From NCBI GenBank assembly GCA_023436245.1, contig JAEZJZ010000020.1, forward strand, positions 29,433 to 93,432: DNA of 64,000 nt, written 5' to 3'. Shown here one piece after another: positions 15,786 through 21,373 of the stretch. The position numbers and the translations under genes were made by a program. Below the pieces are notes generated by a model. The model did no database searches. It was not told the origin of the DNA and saw only the letters and a list, made by a program, of their open reading frames with translations. This stretch comes from Bacillota bacterium. GTDB lineage: Bacteria > Bacillota > UBA994 > UBA5500. Position 1 is the first letter of the stretch; the number at the start of each line of letters is the position of its first letter.

Positions 15786-16478
15786 ATGAAAAAGGTTGGT
15801 TTGGTCGGTGGCATCGGCCCGGCATCAACTCTGGACTATTACCGTGGTATCATCGAAGGTTATCGCGCACGAACAGGCGGCAATAATTATCCGTTCATCC
15901 TCATTGACAGCCTGAACTTGACAGAGATGTATGACTTGGTCGACAGCAAGCAGTGGCAGCCGTTTACCACTAAGCTGGTTGACTCGATCAACTCCCTAGC
16001 CGCCGGGGGAGCGGAGTTCGCCGCCATGGCCGCTAATACCGCTCACATAGTCTTCGACGAAGTGCGCCGTCAGTCCCCCTTGCCGGTGCTCAGCATCGTG
16101 GAGGAGACCTGCAAGCGGGCAAAGGCGCAGGACTGCCATCGGGTGATCGTCTTCGGCACCGCCTTCACCATGAGCAGCAATCTGTATACCGCCGCCTTCG
16201 CCAAATACGGCATCGAGGCCTTTGTCCCAACGGAGGCGGAGCAACAGGCGATTCACGGGATTATCTTCCCGCACTTGCAGGAGGGTATCGTCCTGCCAGA
16301 GGAAAAGCAGACGATGCTAGCCATCGCCCAGCGGATGATCGCCGATCACCAGTCCGACGGTTTGATCCTCGGCTGCACTGAACTGCCGCTGATCATTCAG
16401 CCCGGCGACCTGAACGTGCCCCTGCTGAACACGACGCAGATTCACATCGATGCCATAGTGGCGCATCTACTCGCCTAG
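15786..16478 (+). CDS. Aspartate/glutamate/hydantoin racemase family protein
   Basis: MKKVGLVGGIGPASTLDYY...ILGCTELPL, with a conserved Cys pair. Confidence 0.8.
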   Translation: MKKVGLVGGIGPASTLDYYRGIIEGYRARTGGNNYPFILIDSLNLTEMYDLVDSKQWQPFTTKLVDSINSLAAGGAEFAAMAANTAHIVFDEVRRQSPLPVLSIVEETCKRAKAQDCHRVIVFGTAFTMSSNLYTAAFAKYGIEAFVPTEAEQQAIHGIIFPHLQEGIVLPEEKQTMLAIAQRMIADHQSDGLILGCTELPLIIQPGDLNVPLLNTTQIHIDAIVAHLLA

Positions 16479-16596
16479 CCCAGAGAGCTTACCGGTTCAA
16501 GCATTGTCACCAAACCAGAAGCGACAACAAGCGTGCTGAATCTCGGACAAGACCCCCATGATTGCTAATCACAATCTACGATGAAAGCTCAAGCCG

Positions 16597-16649
16597 GTCA
16601 TCCTGAGCGCACGCGAAGGATCCAGATTCTTCGCTGCGCTCGGAATGAC
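16597..16649. repeat. Repeat family C, compact copy (GTCATCCTGAGCGCACGCGAAGGATCCAGATTCTTCGCTGCGCTCGGAATGAC)
   Basis: Nested hairpin. Followed at 16655-16684 by the palindrome GAGACGAAGGGtctggCCCTTCGTCTC, which lies between two convergent genes. Confidence 0.65.
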
Positions 16650-16709
16650 ACTGAATGAGACGAAGGGTCTGGCCCTTCGTCTCATCCGACGGACTTTCTA
16701 GGAAAGGGG

Positions 16710-17669
16710 CTAGGCTTCCGGCAAGGTTTTGCCGGTGAGCGACCAATCATAGCTGCCGGTGACTTTCACGCTCCGTTTGCCGTCCTTTAAACCAAACTCG
16801 AAGCCAATCGGGAATGAGAGCGCCTCGAACCGGTCGCCGCCCATCGGAATCAAGCGCATGTTGGACCACCAGGACAACTGACAGTAGAGCACACCGGCTA
16901 CCGCCTTGAAGGTAATGGCCCGCTCACTGCCCGGCTCCACCAGGTAGCGCCCAACATACCGTTCAGGGTCAATGGCGATAGCTTCCGGCTGCGCCTGGTA
17001 GGACAGGCCCAAGTACTCGGTCAAGCGCCGCAGATGACGTTCCCATGCTCCGTCAGACGTGACCAGCTTGATCTTGTTACCTTGATAGCGCTCGAACATC
17101 GCGTCGGAAATCGCTTGGTATTCATCCCACATGGCATAGATGCTCGCCTCACCTTGGTACTCGCGCTTGGCGAAGTAACCGAAGCTGGCCGGATCAAGAA
17201 CCAGGCGCTGCCAGCTCTCGCCGCGCACTCGGAACGCTCGCTGCAATGTGGCCCTGACGTCGGCCTGCTGCAGGAACACCACAGTGGGATTCAGGCGAGA
17301 CGTGATCGCCATCACCTGATCGTAGAACTCGCGGATGCGCTCGAGCGGATAATCCGCATCGAAGAAGTAACGAATGATGTTGGAGTAGAGACAGCCCTCC
17401 ATGATGTACACCCGGCCCGACTGCTCAATCTCAGCAGTTAGCCTGGCCCATCTGGCGTACATGTCGGCCACATTTGCCGCCATGCCCTCGGCTGAATGCA
17501 GCGAGCCCGCCGTGAACTCGCCCTCCCGAATGGGGTGCCGCTCAACTTCCTCGTGCAACCAGAGGTGCGGTATGCCGTTGCCTTGGAACTGCCTGGCGAG
17601 CTGCTGAGCGGTCGTGGACTTGCCGGAGCCGCTCATTCCGGTGATCATGATCAACTTAGTGTCGCGCAT
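16710..17669 (-). CDS. P-loop NTPase / kinase-like protein of unknown function
   Basis: Walker A ITGMSGSGKST. No other motif recognised. RBS GGGAGGG. Confidence 0.5.
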   Translation of the reverse strand: MRDTKLIMITGMSGSGKSTTAQQLARQFQGNGIPHLWLHEEVERHPIREGEFTAGSLHSAEGMAANVADMYARWARLTAEIEQSGRVYIMEGCLYSNIIRYFFDADYPLERIREFYDQVMAITSRLNPTVVFLQQADVRATLQRAFRVRGESWQRLVLDPASFGYFAKREYQGEASIYAMWDEYQAISDAMFERYQGNKIKLVTSDGAWERHLRRLTEYLGLSYQAQPEAIAIDPERYVGRYLVEPGSERAITFKAVAGVLYCQLSWWSNMRLIPMGGDRFEALSFPIGFEFGLKDGKRSVKVTGSYDWSLTGKTLPEA

Positions 17670-17778
17670 GTATATCCCTCCCAGTCCTGCCTAGGGCCAG
17701 TATATTGGGCCCCACTGGGCTGAACAAGTGCCGTGTTTGGTTCAGAGCCATTCTCTGCTAGCGCGGTCACCGGAGCGG

Positions 17779-18468
17779 CTACTCCATCGCCTGCAATGCC
17801 GCTTGCCGGGCGTGAAGGTAGCAGGTATCAAACAGCTGAATGGGGGCGTCGCCCTGCTTCACCAAGAGTCCGATTTCCGTGCACCCAAGGATGACCGCTT
17901 CCGCGCCTTGTCGCTGCAATCTCTCAATAATCTGCAGATACTGACGCTTGGACTCTGCCTTGATCTTCCCCAGACAGAGCTCTCCGTAGATTACGTCATG
18001 CACCAGTTGCCGATCGGCTTGGTCTGGAATGACCACCCTGAGGCCATGACTCTCCAGCCTACCACGATAGAACTCCTGTTCCATGGTGAACCGCGTCCCC
18101 AGCAGGGCTACCGTGTTAACCCCAGCGTTTCGCAAGGCTCCTGCTGTCACATCAGCGATGTGCAGCACGGGAATCTGCACGGCCTCTGCAATCTGGCGGA
18201 CCACCTTATGCATTGTGTTGGTGCAGAGCACGATGAAGTCTGCCCCGGCCTGTTCCAATGCTGCTGCGGCCTGAGCCATCATCTCCCCACTGCGCTCCCA
18301 TTCCCCTCGGGCCTGCAACATTTCCACCTCGTGAAAATCCACACTGTAGAGGATGCACTTCGCTGAGTGGAAGCCGCCCAGCACTTCCTTCACTGTCTCG
18401 TTGATCACCCGATAGTACTCCAGCGAACTCTCCCAGCTCATGCCACCGATTAGGCCGATGGTCTTCAT
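17779..18468 (-). CDS. Aspartate racemase family protein (paralog of 15786..16478)
   Basis: MKTIGLIGGMSWESSLEYY...ILGCTEIGLL. RBS GGAGGAGTG. Confidence 0.8.
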   Translation of the reverse strand: MKTIGLIGGMSWESSLEYYRVINETVKEVLGGFHSAKCILYSVDFHEVEMLQARGEWERSGEMMAQAAAALEQAGADFIVLCTNTMHKVVRQIAEAVQIPVLHIADVTAGALRNAGVNTVALLGTRFTMEQEFYRGRLESHGLRVVIPDQADRQLVHDVIYGELCLGKIKAESKRQYLQIIERLQRQGAEAVILGCTEIGLLVKQGDAPIQLFDTCYLHARQAALQAME

Positions 18469-18659
18469 AGTCGATCACTCCTCCAAACGCATTATGAAGA
18501 AACCCCTCGCATGACGAGGGCGACTCCCTCTCCACTCTGTGGACATGAGCTCAACGCCACCGATAGAATTGAGTGCCGCGACCTCTTGCGATTACCCAAG
18601 TGATTACAGGCTGCCGAAATCCTGGCCACGCATATGCGCTGCAGCAATCTCCTTCTCGC

Positions 18660-19388
18660 CTACAGAAACACCTCGTTCAATCGAATTGCCAGGTCTTCAA
18701 ATACCGCCGACCGAATTGCATCGTCTTTGCCAATGACCAGCGTGCGGTCTATATCCCGCTCCGGAGAGAAGACATGTTGCATGATGCTCTTCCCCTGCGG
18801 ATCAACAATCCAGTATTCCGAGACCCCGCTCTTCATGTACAGCTGTAACTTGGTAGCCATGTCCTTGCCTTTGCTAGTCGGAGACAGCACTTCCACGATC
18901 AAAGTGGGGAGTCCCTCATACTTACCGTCCGCATTCACCTTATCCTCGTCGCAGATGACCACGATGTCGGGCTGCACCACATTAGGATCCTCTTCAAACC
19001 TCGTGGCATAACCAAAGAGGCGCACGTCCAGCGGCGCCGTCAACGATCGGCAGGGCTTCCCTCTGAAGTAGGCATAAAAGTGTGCAGCTATCTCACTTAC
19101 CACAACTTGATGGGTGAAACTCGGTGAGGTCAACAGGTAAACTACACCGTCAATCAGCTCGTAGCGCTGTTCGGACGACTCGACCAACAGCATGTACTCT
19201 TCGTAGTTGATCCGCCTGTTCTCTCGATAACAGCGCCCTTCTTCGCGAATGAGGCAGTAGGCCGGATCGCTGTACCTAACCAGCTTCGCTACACTCTTGC
19301 CATTCTTGAGAACAATTACATCTTCCTTCTGCACCAATGACAAGTACTTACCGAACGCATTCTGTAGATCCGTGGCGCTGACGCGCAT
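18660..19388 (-). CDS. Fusion protein: Phd/YefM-like N-terminal domain + Uma2 (DUF820) restriction-endonuclease-fold nuclease
   Basis: N-terminus MRVSATDLQNAFGKYLSLVQKEDVIVLKNGKSVAKLV is antitoxin-like. Remainder ...YELIDGVVYLLTSPSFTHQ...PDIVVICDED...PTLIVEVLSPTSKGKDMATKLQLYMKSGVSEYWIVDP carries Uma2 catalytic-core motifs. RBS GAGGGGGTGG. Confidence 0.6.
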   Translation of the reverse strand: MRVSATDLQNAFGKYLSLVQKEDVIVLKNGKSVAKLVRYSDPAYCLIREEGRCYRENRRINYEEYMLLVESSEQRYELIDGVVYLLTSPSFTHQVVVSEIAAHFYAYFRGKPCRSLTAPLDVRLFGYATRFEEDPNVVQPDIVVICDEDKVNADGKYEGLPTLIVEVLSPTSKGKDMATKLQLYMKSGVSEYWIVDPQGKSIMQHVFSPERDIDRTLVIGKDDAIRSAVFEDLAIRLNEVFL

Positions 19389-19726
19389 ACCGCCACCCCC
19401 TCGGTAGATTTGCTATAATTATATGGTATATTAGCTAATAGAACAACGCCTATCTTAGCTAAACCTGGCGATCACCTCGCCAGGAGTTCTCCGCACAACG
19501 CGCTCCTCCGGTCACACTAACTGACTATTGCTCTGAAGCCGGTGACTGGTCTCGCGGGGGACAAGATGTCTCCTACGGCTGGGAATATCTATGATACAAT
19601 AGCAGCAAGAACTGCGGAGAGCTAATGACCATGTGGATCTGTAACGCCAAGTCAGCGGAATGACTGAAGCCCCGAACCCGGGTCTTCGGTCAGCGCTTTC
19701 TTGGCACTAAGGTGAGGTGTGAAACG

Positions 19727-21373
19727 TTGCGAAAGAGGCACTGTTGGCTAGCCCTATCGTTGGCTCTGCTGTTGACAGCAACCCTGTCCGGTTGCAGCAA
19801 GTCAGAAGCCGGGCTTACCCCCACGGCAATGCGACAAGACTTCGAGTTCATAGCCCAGAAGATCGAGGATGTACATCCGATTGGGGCAACAGGCCTGACG
19901 AGCGGGCTGCATCAGGCAATCTATGACGGTCGGACACGCTTGGCGATAGAGCAGCCGACATTCGCTGACTACTTCTGGGCGGTATCCAACCTGTTGAGCG
20001 CCCTGGACGACCGGCAAAGCCATCTGATCTGGCCAATCGCGGACAAGGCCCTGGATTTGCCGCTCTATTGGTGCGCAGATGGCCTATATGTCATCAGTGC
20101 GGCCGACAAGCTGGAACCCGGGGACCGGGTACTGTCCATGGGCGGCCAGAGTACTGCGAACTATGAGCCACTGAGCATGGTAGCCCCCTACCTGTCTGCA
20201 GCAGATGGGCATGAGATCGGGAGAGTGTTGACCAGCCAACATGTGCTGCAAGGCTTGAGCTTGGTCGGAGTGGACGGCCTGGTCAATGTGGAGATCCAAC
20301 GGGGAGATCAGAAGCAGAGTCTCCGACTGACCTTTGCCAAAGAGTATCAGCCACCGCAGGCTGATTTGACGCAAGAGGACTCTAGCTGGAGTCTGGAGCC
20401 AGAGAACTCGCTCGGGATTTTCTGCCTGAATGAGCTGGGCGCCGGGGCTTCACTTCAGCAACAACTGCGTGAATTCTTCGCGGCAGTCCAGGTTCAGAAC
20501 CTGCAAAGCGTGGTGCTGGATTTGCGCCATACGCGAGGCAGCGACTGGCAGACAGCGCAGGAGTTGCTGCGCTATCTGGATGTGGAAAGCTACGAAGACT
20601 ACGGCGAAAGCGTGCGATCTCCCGGACAGACGGAGATGCAGACCAGGCAGCCCCAACGGATTAGCAACGACGCGTACCGTGATATTGCGTTTCATGGTCA
20701 GACCTATGTGCTAGTAGCTGGCTCTACCTCTGAAAGCGCCTGCCGTCTGGCGGCTCTGTTGTGCCAGAATCGGCTGGCGCAGTTGGTCGGACAGAGCGTC
20801 GGGAGAGCCGCTGTCCGCTACGGCAAGGCAGAGCAGTTCACCCTACCGGCGTCGAAGCTACGGTTCACCATCTCCAGCACCGAGTTCCTGCCCCCGGGAG
20901 GAGGCAGCGCTGGCACAGTGTTCAGTTCTGGGGGGCCGGCATTTGTCTCTTTGGCCAATATCCTGGCCGGGGCGGATGTTGAACTGCGGATGGCGAGGGT
21001 GATGGCTGAATGGGGCGAACGATTATATCAAGCGCCAGAAGCTACCCCACTTGTTTCACTGGAGGGCAAGACGTTGGAGCAGGCGGCACGCGAGTGGCTG
21101 GAAGCCTGTTTCTTGCCCTTGAAGTCGGAAACAGTATCACCCAGGCTACGGTTGGCGGACTTCTCCATTCAGTGGGCAAAACAGGAAGACCCCATGCATG
21201 GTCATGATAACGTCGTCTGGGTTCAGTATTCGCTGAAGCCGGCCTATCCCGAGTTTTACTTAGCAGCTGGCAACGGAATCTGGGACGGTGCCTGGCTCAA
21301 GAATGAGGAACGCTTCCTGGTTTTCAAGTCGGACGGCGAGCTCTATCGCGTGGATGCAGTTACTGGGTTGTGA
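19727..21373 (+). CDS. S41-family peptidase (C-terminal processing/tail-specific protease-like) lipoprotein
   Basis: Lipobox LLTATLSGC. LDLRHTRGS resembles the S41 LDLRxNxGG motif. TTG 19727 follows GGTGAGGTG (a GTG at 19712 is an alternative). Confidence 0.55.
   Translation: MRKRHCWLALSLALLLTATLSGCSKSEAGLTPTAMRQDFEFIAQKIEDVHPIGATGLTSGLHQAIYDGRTRLAIEQPTFADYFWAVSNLLSALDDRQSHLIWPIADKALDLPLYWCADGLYVISAADKLEPGDRVLSMGGQSTANYEPLSMVAPYLSAADGHEIGRVLTSQHVLQGLSLVGVDGLVNVEIQRGDQKQSLRLTFAKEYQPPQADLTQEDSSWSLEPENSLGIFCLNELGAGASLQQQLREFFAAVQVQNLQSVVLDLRHTRGSDWQTAQELLRYLDVESYEDYGESVRSPGQTEMQTRQPQRISNDAYRDIAFHGQTYVLVAGSTSESACRLAALLCQNRLAQLVGQSVGRAAVRYGKAEQFTLPASKLRFTISSTEFLPPGGGSAGTVFSSGGPAFVSLANILAGADVELRMARVMAEWGERLYQAPEATPLVSLEGKTLEQAAREWLEACFLPLKSETVSPRLRLADFSIQWAKQEDPMHGHDNVVWVQYSLKPAYPEFYLAAGNGIWDGAWLKNEERFLVFKSDGELYRVDAVTGL

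Follow-up and report, generated by a model that had tools for sequence, protein, structure and literature searches.

A stretch of 64,000 nucleotides from a Bacillota bacterium (contig JAEZJZ010000020.1, positions 29,433 to 93,432), hereafter called the window, was analyzed with respect to a single gene on its minus strand. This gene encodes the DNA-binding head of a Phd/YefM-type antitoxin joined to a nuclease domain of the Uma2 family and is referred to below as the Phd-Uma2 fusion gene. Its translation was exactly the sequence quoted in the initial annotation of this DNA, and protein P0001, found on metagenome contigs, was 100% identical to it. What is new here is a conserved array of predicted operators in the promoter of the fused genes, a clear and testable cis-regulatory signature. 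The coordinates of all features are collected in Table 1.

The initial annotation had proposed that a Phd/YefM-like domain and a Uma2 domain were fused in one open reading frame (ORF) of 242 amino acids (aa). This architecture was borne out by Pfam, by the NCBIfam model TIGR01552, by profile–profile comparison and by the folds of predicted structures. The Pfam family PF02604 (PhdYeFM_antitox) was aligned with residues 3–41 at profile positions 4–44 of 74 (E = 2e-6). Measured against its curated cut-off of 29.8 bits, the whole protein scored 27.8 bits and the N-terminus scanned alone 31.2 bits, while the score for TIGR01552 (phd_fam) exceeded the cut-off of that model. PF02604 was also matched by the N-termini of all 29 diverse homologues examined (29/29), with a best E-value of 2e-11. 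Comparison of the head profile with a profile of stand-alone Phd antitoxins by hhalign yielded a probability of 99.7% (E = 1.4e-25) over residues 1–47.

In an AlphaFold (AF2) model of residues 1–62, the predicted local distance difference test (pLDDT) value was about 92 for residues 1–40, and the head showed a strand-helix-helix-strand-strand topology. The top PDB folds returned by Foldseek were all DNA-binding domains of Phd/YefM-type antitoxins, namely the N-domain of VapB46 (6jqy; root-mean-square deviation (rmsd) 1.1 Å), RelB1 (9g12), Phd (4zlx and 4zm0) and YefM (2a6q). The fold search and Pfam were needed for this assignment because the N-domain profile by itself gave no significant hit among PDB sequences (best E = 0.077). 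Borderline by its PF02604 score, the assignment became solid with the homologue N-termini, the profile–profile comparison and the AlphaFold model. The N-terminus is a true Phd/YefM domain and not an ordinary Uma2 N-terminus, which was the profile check suggested by the initial annotation; the starts of close unfused Uma2 relatives were located about 5–10 residues ahead of residue 60. In the full-length AlphaFold monomer, the pLDDT of the N-domain was about 50 and no usable or confident interdomain packing was obtained; since low monomer confidence is expected for an obligate dimer, the N-domain was modelled separately. The head was the best-conserved part of the protein, with a mean column identity of 0.86 compared to 0.80 in the Uma2 part.

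PDB entry 3k6q, a 139-aa "putative ligand binding protein", was the best PDB sequence match of the N-domain profiles; its first ~35 residues are Phd-like, and it appears to be another Phd head on a different C-terminal domain. A 1259-aa repetitive protein (P0127) that matched the N-terminal query was rejected as spurious, the match being caused by a repeated GKYLYLVQEK word.

The C-terminal toxin-binding and neutralising segment of Phd was not found in the fusion protein, as the Pfam match ended at profile position 44 and the hhalign homology at residue 47. In the Phd/YefM family, toxin neutralisation resides in this part, Phd-C (PMC10440598). The nuclease thus appears to have taken the place of the neutralising segment, with only the DNA-binding and dimerisation half being kept. 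The connector between the two domains sits where Phd has helix 3 and the toxin-binding tail. It was modelled with low confidence and has no counterpart in unfused Uma2 relatives, and its residues E49 and Y54 were invariant across both fused clades described below.

A complete Uma2 region was observed from about residue 57 to residue 242. The match to PF05685 covered profile positions 2–167 of 172 (E = 6e-29), and the domain matched the Uma2 crystal structures 9y1l, 6okh, 3ot2 and 1wdj by both sequence and fold; for 9y1l, the target-normalised template modelling score was 0.87 and the rmsd 2.1 Å. All four Uma2 entries in PDB contain at least two chains. Residues E77, D141, E166 and K180, which were invariant across 133 sequences, fit the PD-EXX-K active-site variant defined for the Uma2 family (PMC551604). 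The catalytic residues are intact, and nuclease activity is predicted. Residues 56–241 also matched the PADLOC candidate defence system PDC-S03 (E = 8.5e-56), whose protein models span 184–207 positions and cover the Uma2 part only. A literature search for PDC-S03 found no paper, and the match is a lead, not evidence.

Two cysteines of this domain, Cys113 (19050–19052) and Cys146 (18951–18953), were conserved without exception among the fused proteins and largely retained by unfused relatives from Firmicutes, but the Leptospirillum structure 9y1l lacks them. In the anaerobe subfamily, they could serve as a metal, redox or disulfide site. The acidic loop at residues 125–137 was rejected as a fusion-specific feature, as loops of similar or greater length occur in some of the unfused relatives.

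A database search returned 2771 relatives of the fusion protein. The best 120 of these were all 241–257 aa long, aligned over their full length at 65–100% identity and mostly contained both Pfam domains, and remoter full-length fused members were found at 37–45% identity. The hosts were anaerobic Bacillota (Syntrophomonas, Peptococcaceae, Desulfitobacterium, Desulfitibacter, Dethiobacter, Dehalobacter, Anaerovirgula and Limnochordia), and carriers included isolate or complete genomes, namely Syntrophomonas wolfei (CP000448), Desulfitobacterium and Dehalobacter (CP148031). As the 120 best homologues were full length and several came from such genomes, the fusion is not an artefact of gene calling or assembly. 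In the automatic NCBI annotation, some of these proteins are named "Phd/YefM family antitoxin" and others "Uma2 family endonuclease". The Uma2 literature covers stand-alone proteins only, and a literature search found no paper mentioning the Phd/YefM and Uma2 domains together. The fusion is a conserved and widespread family that has remained under misleading database names and is undescribed in the searchable literature.

For the analysis of promoters, the 130-bp regions preceding about 50 non-identical fused genes were aligned. A shared layout was observed in otherwise unrelated DNA, consisting of box1-TTGACA-box2-TATAAT-box3-ribosome-binding site-ATG, where each box is a palindrome of the form (A/T)TAGCTA(A/T). 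Of 54 non-identical fused loci, 40 had two or more exact TAGCTA hexamers in the 110 bp preceding the gene and 48 had one or more, compared to a background expectation of 0.03 per 100 bp. The spacing between boxes was 22–23 bp in 42 of 55 gaps, which corresponds to about two helical turns.

The arrays were specific to genes with a Phd-like N-domain. Over 921 kb of sequence (all fetched loci and the window), 57 paired arrays were found, and 55 of them were followed by a Phd-like N-domain within 160 bp. The remaining two were upstream of a fused gene with a displaced promoter in a Syntrophomonadaceae metagenome-assembled genome (MAG; L019:2176–2382). At this locus, an insertion of unrelated sequence separates the fused gene from its promoter, and the TAGCTA array with its ribosome-binding site lies about 150 bp further upstream than usual. 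No paired array was found upstream of the approximately 70 unfused Uma2 genes in the same 921 kb.

The promoter of the window gene was assigned by alignment to the family consensus aTTGaca...tTa.aAT. It was not flagged by a simple sigma-70 promoter scan, because its -35 element matches the consensus at only three of six positions. Box 2 is the most conserved box of the family, and the window copy of box 3 aligns with the family consensus box 3 at a distance of 22 bp from box 2. The 7-mer TAGCTAA occurred only once elsewhere in the 64 kb. A perfect inverted repeat of 8 bp (CCTGGCGA/TCGCCAGG), its arms separated by a 5-nt loop, was noted immediately upstream of box 1 at 19464–19484, in the DNA between the fusion gene and the divergent S41 peptidase gene.

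Table 1. Features of the Phd-Uma2 fusion gene and its promoter (positions in the window).
Feature	Position	Strand	Remarks
Phd(N)-Uma2 fusion gene	18660..19388	minus	ATG-start ORF, 242 aa, complete, probably monocistronic
Phd/YefM-type dimerisation and DNA-binding domain, residues 1-41	19266..19388	minus	PF02604, TIGR01552, profile-profile comparison, model
Fusion-specific connector, residues 42-56	19221..19265	minus	invariant E49 and Y54
Uma2 (DUF820, COG4636) PD-(D/E)xK nuclease domain, residues 63-233	18690..19202	minus	PF05685
E77	19158-19160	minus	invariant predicted catalytic residue
D141 (in QPD)	18966-18968	minus	invariant predicted catalytic residue
E166	18891-18893	minus	invariant predicted catalytic residue
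K180	18849-18851	minus	invariant predicted catalytic residue
Predicted operator box 1, palindrome TTAGCTAA	19455..19462	.	just upstream of -35; position conserved in homologues
Predicted operator box 2, palindrome TTAGCTAA	19431..19438	.	within -35/-10 spacer
Predicted operator box 3, degenerate	19410..19415	.	core TAGCAA (minus strand, 5/6); immediately downstream of -10
Inferred promoter	19418..19446	minus	-35 TTGTTC 19441-19446, 17-nt spacer, -10 TATAAT 19418-19423
Ribosome-binding site GAGGGGGTGG	~19393-19402		
Weak terminator-like hairpin	18504..18520	minus	between fusion gene and downstream racemase gene

The origin of the boxes was indicated by the closest non-fused relatives of the N-domain, which are Phd antitoxins of 77–79 aa. 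In three independent cases, the stand-alone Phd gene overlaps a PIN_3 toxin gene, which identifies these examples as canonical Phd-PIN modules. The promoters of these modules have the sequence TTGACA-TTAGCTAA-TATAAT-(A/T)TAGCTAAT-RBS (RBS, ribosome-binding site) and thus contain the counterpart of box 2 in the spacer. As the boxes are carried by Phd-PIN promoters without any Uma2, they travel with the head.

A second line of evidence was obtained from a divergent fused clade with N-termini of the ITATELKxNLGKYL type. The promoter layout in this clade was the same, with (A)TCGTACGA palindromes at the positions of the boxes. Among genes with QN-type heads, TAGCTA was found in 49 of 50 and CGTACG in none of the 50; for ITATELK-type heads, the corresponding values were 0 of 21 for TAGCTA and 12 of 21 for CGTACG. 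The positions that differ between the clades, 9–12, align with Arg10, Gln11, Asn12 and Leu13 of YefM. In the crystal structure of YefM with its operator, each 8-bp palindrome is bound by one dimer, and its GTAC core is read by Arg10 and Gln11, which belong to an antiparallel helix 1-turn-helix 2 unit (PMC7544224). Residues Q9 and N10 of the window head, which align with R10 and Q11 of YefM, are the predicted base-reading residues. The clade with K-x-N-L at these positions (compare R-Q-N-L in YefM) has a box with a GTAC core, as YefM does, and the Q-N-A-F clade has an AGCT core. The sharing of boxes with Phd-PIN modules and the covariation of box and head are two independent lines that point to the Phd head as the owner of the boxes.

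The Phd-Uma2 gene is probably an autorepressed one-gene nuclease cassette, built from the promoter, the operators and the DNA-binding head of a Phd-PIN module. The source would be the front end of such a type II module, in which the antitoxin tail and the PIN toxin were replaced by an in-frame Uma2 domain. Dimers of the N-domain would bind the TAGCTA palindromes, which are placed around the -35 and -10 elements at intervals of about two helical turns, and occupancy of the boxes would repress the gene's own transcription. In this way, the cellular dose of a catalytically intact and potentially harmful nuclease would be clamped. Most likely, the fusion gene switches itself off, because its promoter carries the palindromic sites of its own antitoxin head; DNA binding and repression by this head are predicted from the sequence comparisons. 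In character, the cassette is similar to selfish elements or defence genes.

A more speculative addition to autorepression concerns cooperativity. In Phd-Doc and YefM-YoeB, the bound toxin bridges antitoxin dimers. Dimerisation of Uma2 might similarly link neighbouring operator-bound head dimers and make repression cooperative. Such bridging could also account for a third box in the fused genes; the three stand-alone promoters, a small sample, lacked it.

Several points weigh against autorepression as described here. The whole case is comparative, and a different host factor might in principle occupy the boxes. Of the 54 loci, 14 had one exact box or none, and most of these have copies with one mismatch. 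The window copy itself has a weak -35 element (3/6) and a degenerate third box. For cooperative bridging, the sole basis is the presence of two chains in the Uma2 crystal entries. In the searchable literature, no biochemical demonstration of nuclease activity was found for any Uma2 member.

The genomic surroundings provided no partner for the fusion gene. In the window, its neighbours are a divergent S41 peptidase gene and, across a gap of 191 bp, an Asp/Glu racemase gene; in S. wolfei, Desulfitobacterium chlororespirans and Desulfitibacter alkalitolerans, the neighbours were entirely different, unrelated genes, and fused-gene neighbourhoods consisted mostly of housekeeping genes. Neither a partner toxin or antitoxin gene (Doc, YoeB/RelE, PIN) nor a methyltransferase or immunity gene was found adjacent to it in the window or in these three isolate genomes. 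Apart from truncated or pseudogene copies, no split forms with separate toxin and antitoxin versions were found, and a search of Rfam over positions 18000–20000 gave no match to an RNA partner. In plasmid and phage collections, the fused form was not found, and only unfused Uma2 proteins at no more than 40% identity were present. In the window, the paralogous Asp/Glu racemase genes at 15786–16478 (plus strand) and 17779–18468 (minus strand) flank a 319-aa AAA_18-like gene at 16710–17669 (minus strand), an arrangement (15786–18468) that is unrelated to the fusion.

The closest unfused Uma2 proteins, from Lachnospiraceae, Treponema and others, showed 35–40% identity and begin 5–20 residues before the point aligned with residue 60. 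The initial annotation had suggested a survey for unfused homologues located beside separate Phd genes. With a family-specific hidden Markov model and inspection of neighbours, no Phd gene was found beside unfused relatives in 26 loci, where only occasional unrelated HicB, RelE or PIN genes were observed.

The G+C content of the gene and its promoter (window positions 18800–19700) was 0.52–0.54, compared to 0.58–0.60 in the flanking genes, which is consistent with acquisition from a Bacillota donor of lower G+C. Some genomes contained several fused copies. In one Bacillota MAG, three Phd-Uma2 paralogues were found within 4.6 kb (L009:4001–8604), two with TAGCTA boxes and one with CGTACG boxes; the presence of both head types in one locus suggests that co-resident copies are regulated independently and are mutually insulated. 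Frameshifted or internally deleted fused copies were also observed (L051:3992–4543, L061:4781–5038 and protein P0126), and they indicate a turnover typical of toxin-antitoxin-like or defence genes. Low G+C, multiple copies and degraded copies are all features typical of mobile or selfish genes.

At one of these loci (L061:5389–6174, minus strand), a 261-aa protein was encoded in which an HTH_17 domain (PF12728, E = 1.2e-7) is fused to Uma2 (E = 8e-35). Its gene lies no more than 2.5 kb from an intact CGTACG-type Phd-Uma2 gene and from the degraded TAGCTA-type copy. Uma2 has thus gained N-terminal DNA-binding heads more than once, which argues for a contribution of the head to DNA binding rather than neutralisation.

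The suggestion of the initial annotation that the protein is a self-regulated single-chain toxin-antitoxin was upheld only in part. Self-regulation is supported, as a prediction, by a conserved operator array that is shared with stand-alone Phd genes and co-varies with the base-reading residues; the single-chain toxin-antitoxin (TA) part found no support in the form proposed, as only the front of the Phd profile is present and the neutralising segment is replaced by the nuclease. As a mechanism, the head and the connector with E49 and Y54 would inhibit Uma2 in cis, and the toxin would be released once they are removed or displaced by proteolysis or a phage trigger. The descent of the N-domain from a TA antitoxin, the invariance of the two connector residues across clades sharing 30–40% identity, the PDC-S03 match of the Uma2 part, the naming of Uma2 as a likely solo toxin by Makarova et al. 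and the existence of fused TA systems such as CapRel and EzeT (PMC9712102, PMC4826407) all agree with such inhibition. It is nevertheless unlikely: the segment that neutralises in Phd/YefM proteins is absent (PMC10440598), an ancestral tail would be specific for PIN and not for Uma2, an HTH_17 head can substitute for the Phd head, and the monomer model showed no confident interdomain packing. Moreover, close unfused relatives exist without any antitoxin, so that the Uma2 nuclease does not obviously need neutralising. A bolder version, in which the whole TA logic circuit is contained in one polypeptide, is equally improbable. Alternating dimers of Phd heads and of Uma2 would polymerise over three in-phase operators, and the DNA-bound polymer would be at once the repressor and the sequestered, inactive nuclease; active Uma2 would be freed when the operator DNA is lost or damaged, or when a trigger causes the labile head to be removed, and single-gene addiction or abortive infection would result. 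If true, this would be the first function for the large Uma2/PDC-S03 family, and the co-varying TAGCTA and CGTACG reading heads would insulate paralogues within one genome.

A DNA-targeting effector, also raised by the initial annotation, would use the Phd head to bring Uma2 to foreign or chromosomal DNA bearing TAGCTA, in a restriction- or homing-like manner. A DNA-binding domain joined to a PD-(D/E)xK nuclease, a well-defined recognition palindrome diversified between clades, and paralogues of different specificity lying side by side (L009, L061) would suit such an enzyme. The distribution of the sites argues against it and makes it very unlikely: clustered sites were found only in the gene's own promoter, where they would be self-cleaved, arrays were confined to such promoters in the 921 kb, the same boxes serve stand-alone antitoxins without any nuclease, and TAGCTA was not avoided in the 64-kb window (5 found, 5.07 expected). 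A methyltransferase or immunity gene, as noted above, was not adjacent. The same absence of other box arrays, in the window and in the related loci, argues against an ordinary transcription factor that regulates itself and perhaps other genes, with the Uma2 fold serving for sensing or oligomerisation and not for catalysis. A regulator of this kind would fit the operator evidence equally well, some PD-(D/E)xK folds are non-catalytic (PMC551604), and the gene sits among housekeeping genes. Considering the invariance of the four catalytic residues, and the pseudogenised and clustered paralogues, which typify selfish or defence genes and not regulators, this explanation is likewise given little credence. 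The autorepressed nuclease cassette is the reading preferred here.

The Uma2 (DUF820) family of predicted nucleases is very large, and its first description dates back about 20 years. It is represented by four crystal structures and a listing as a phage-defence candidate, but no experimentally shown function was found for it in the searchable literature. The fused subfamily offers an entry to this family, with a defined cis element, a predicted DNA-binding head and identifiable specificity residues; the two clades with two different palindromes provide a natural control, and self-limited expression should allow such a gene to be cloned. With regard to TA systems, the fusion would represent a modular reuse in which promoter, operator and the DNA-binding half of an antitoxin were moved as a unit onto a new effector and the neutralising half was discarded, which reverses the usual picture of neutralising tails being swapped between DNA-binding domains. 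A fusion alone is unremarkable, and current concepts are not overturned. For specialists in TA systems and nucleases, the interest lies in the inherited promoter-operator-head unit, the covariation of operator and head, and the experimental handle on Uma2.

Compared with known systems, the fusion is closest in its front part to the Phd/YefM antitoxins, especially those of Phd-PIN modules such as VapB46-VapC46. The N-terminal fold, the sequence family, the base-reading positions in helix 1 and the promoter layout with palindromic operators overlapping -35 and -10 are all shared. In contrast to these antitoxins, and to two-gene type II TA systems with their separate toxin and antitoxin proteins, the fusion is a single gene that lacks the C-terminal toxin-binding tail and a separate toxin gene, and its head is covalently joined to a nuclease of unrelated fold. 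The number of operators also differs, with usually three at 22–23 bp in the fusion and two at 25 bp in the stand-alone Phd-PIN promoters (three examples). Because the neutralising tail and the partner toxin are both absent, the fusion should not be annotated as an antitoxin.

With other Uma2 proteins (DUF820/COG4636; TT1808 (1wdj), 3ot2, 6okh, 9y1l), the fusion shares the complete domain, the PD-EXX-K variant, the solo gene and the paralogue clusters. It differs from them in its 56-residue DNA-binding head and dedicated operator-bearing promoter, and in its occurrence in anaerobic Bacillota, whereas the expansions described in the literature are cyanobacterial. CapRel(SJ46) and EzeT likewise combine toxin- and antitoxin-related parts in one polypeptide, but their antitoxin part neutralises the toxin in cis, whereas the fusion keeps the DNA-binding part only. 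The nearest design precedents are the RHH-HEPN (paREP1) and Xre-COG2856 fusions (Makarova et al. 2009, PMC2701414). Both domains belong to other families there, and operator evidence was not reported for those fusions, but the design is the same: a DNA-binding module of an antitoxin is combined with an effector-like domain, and the usual partner gene is absent.

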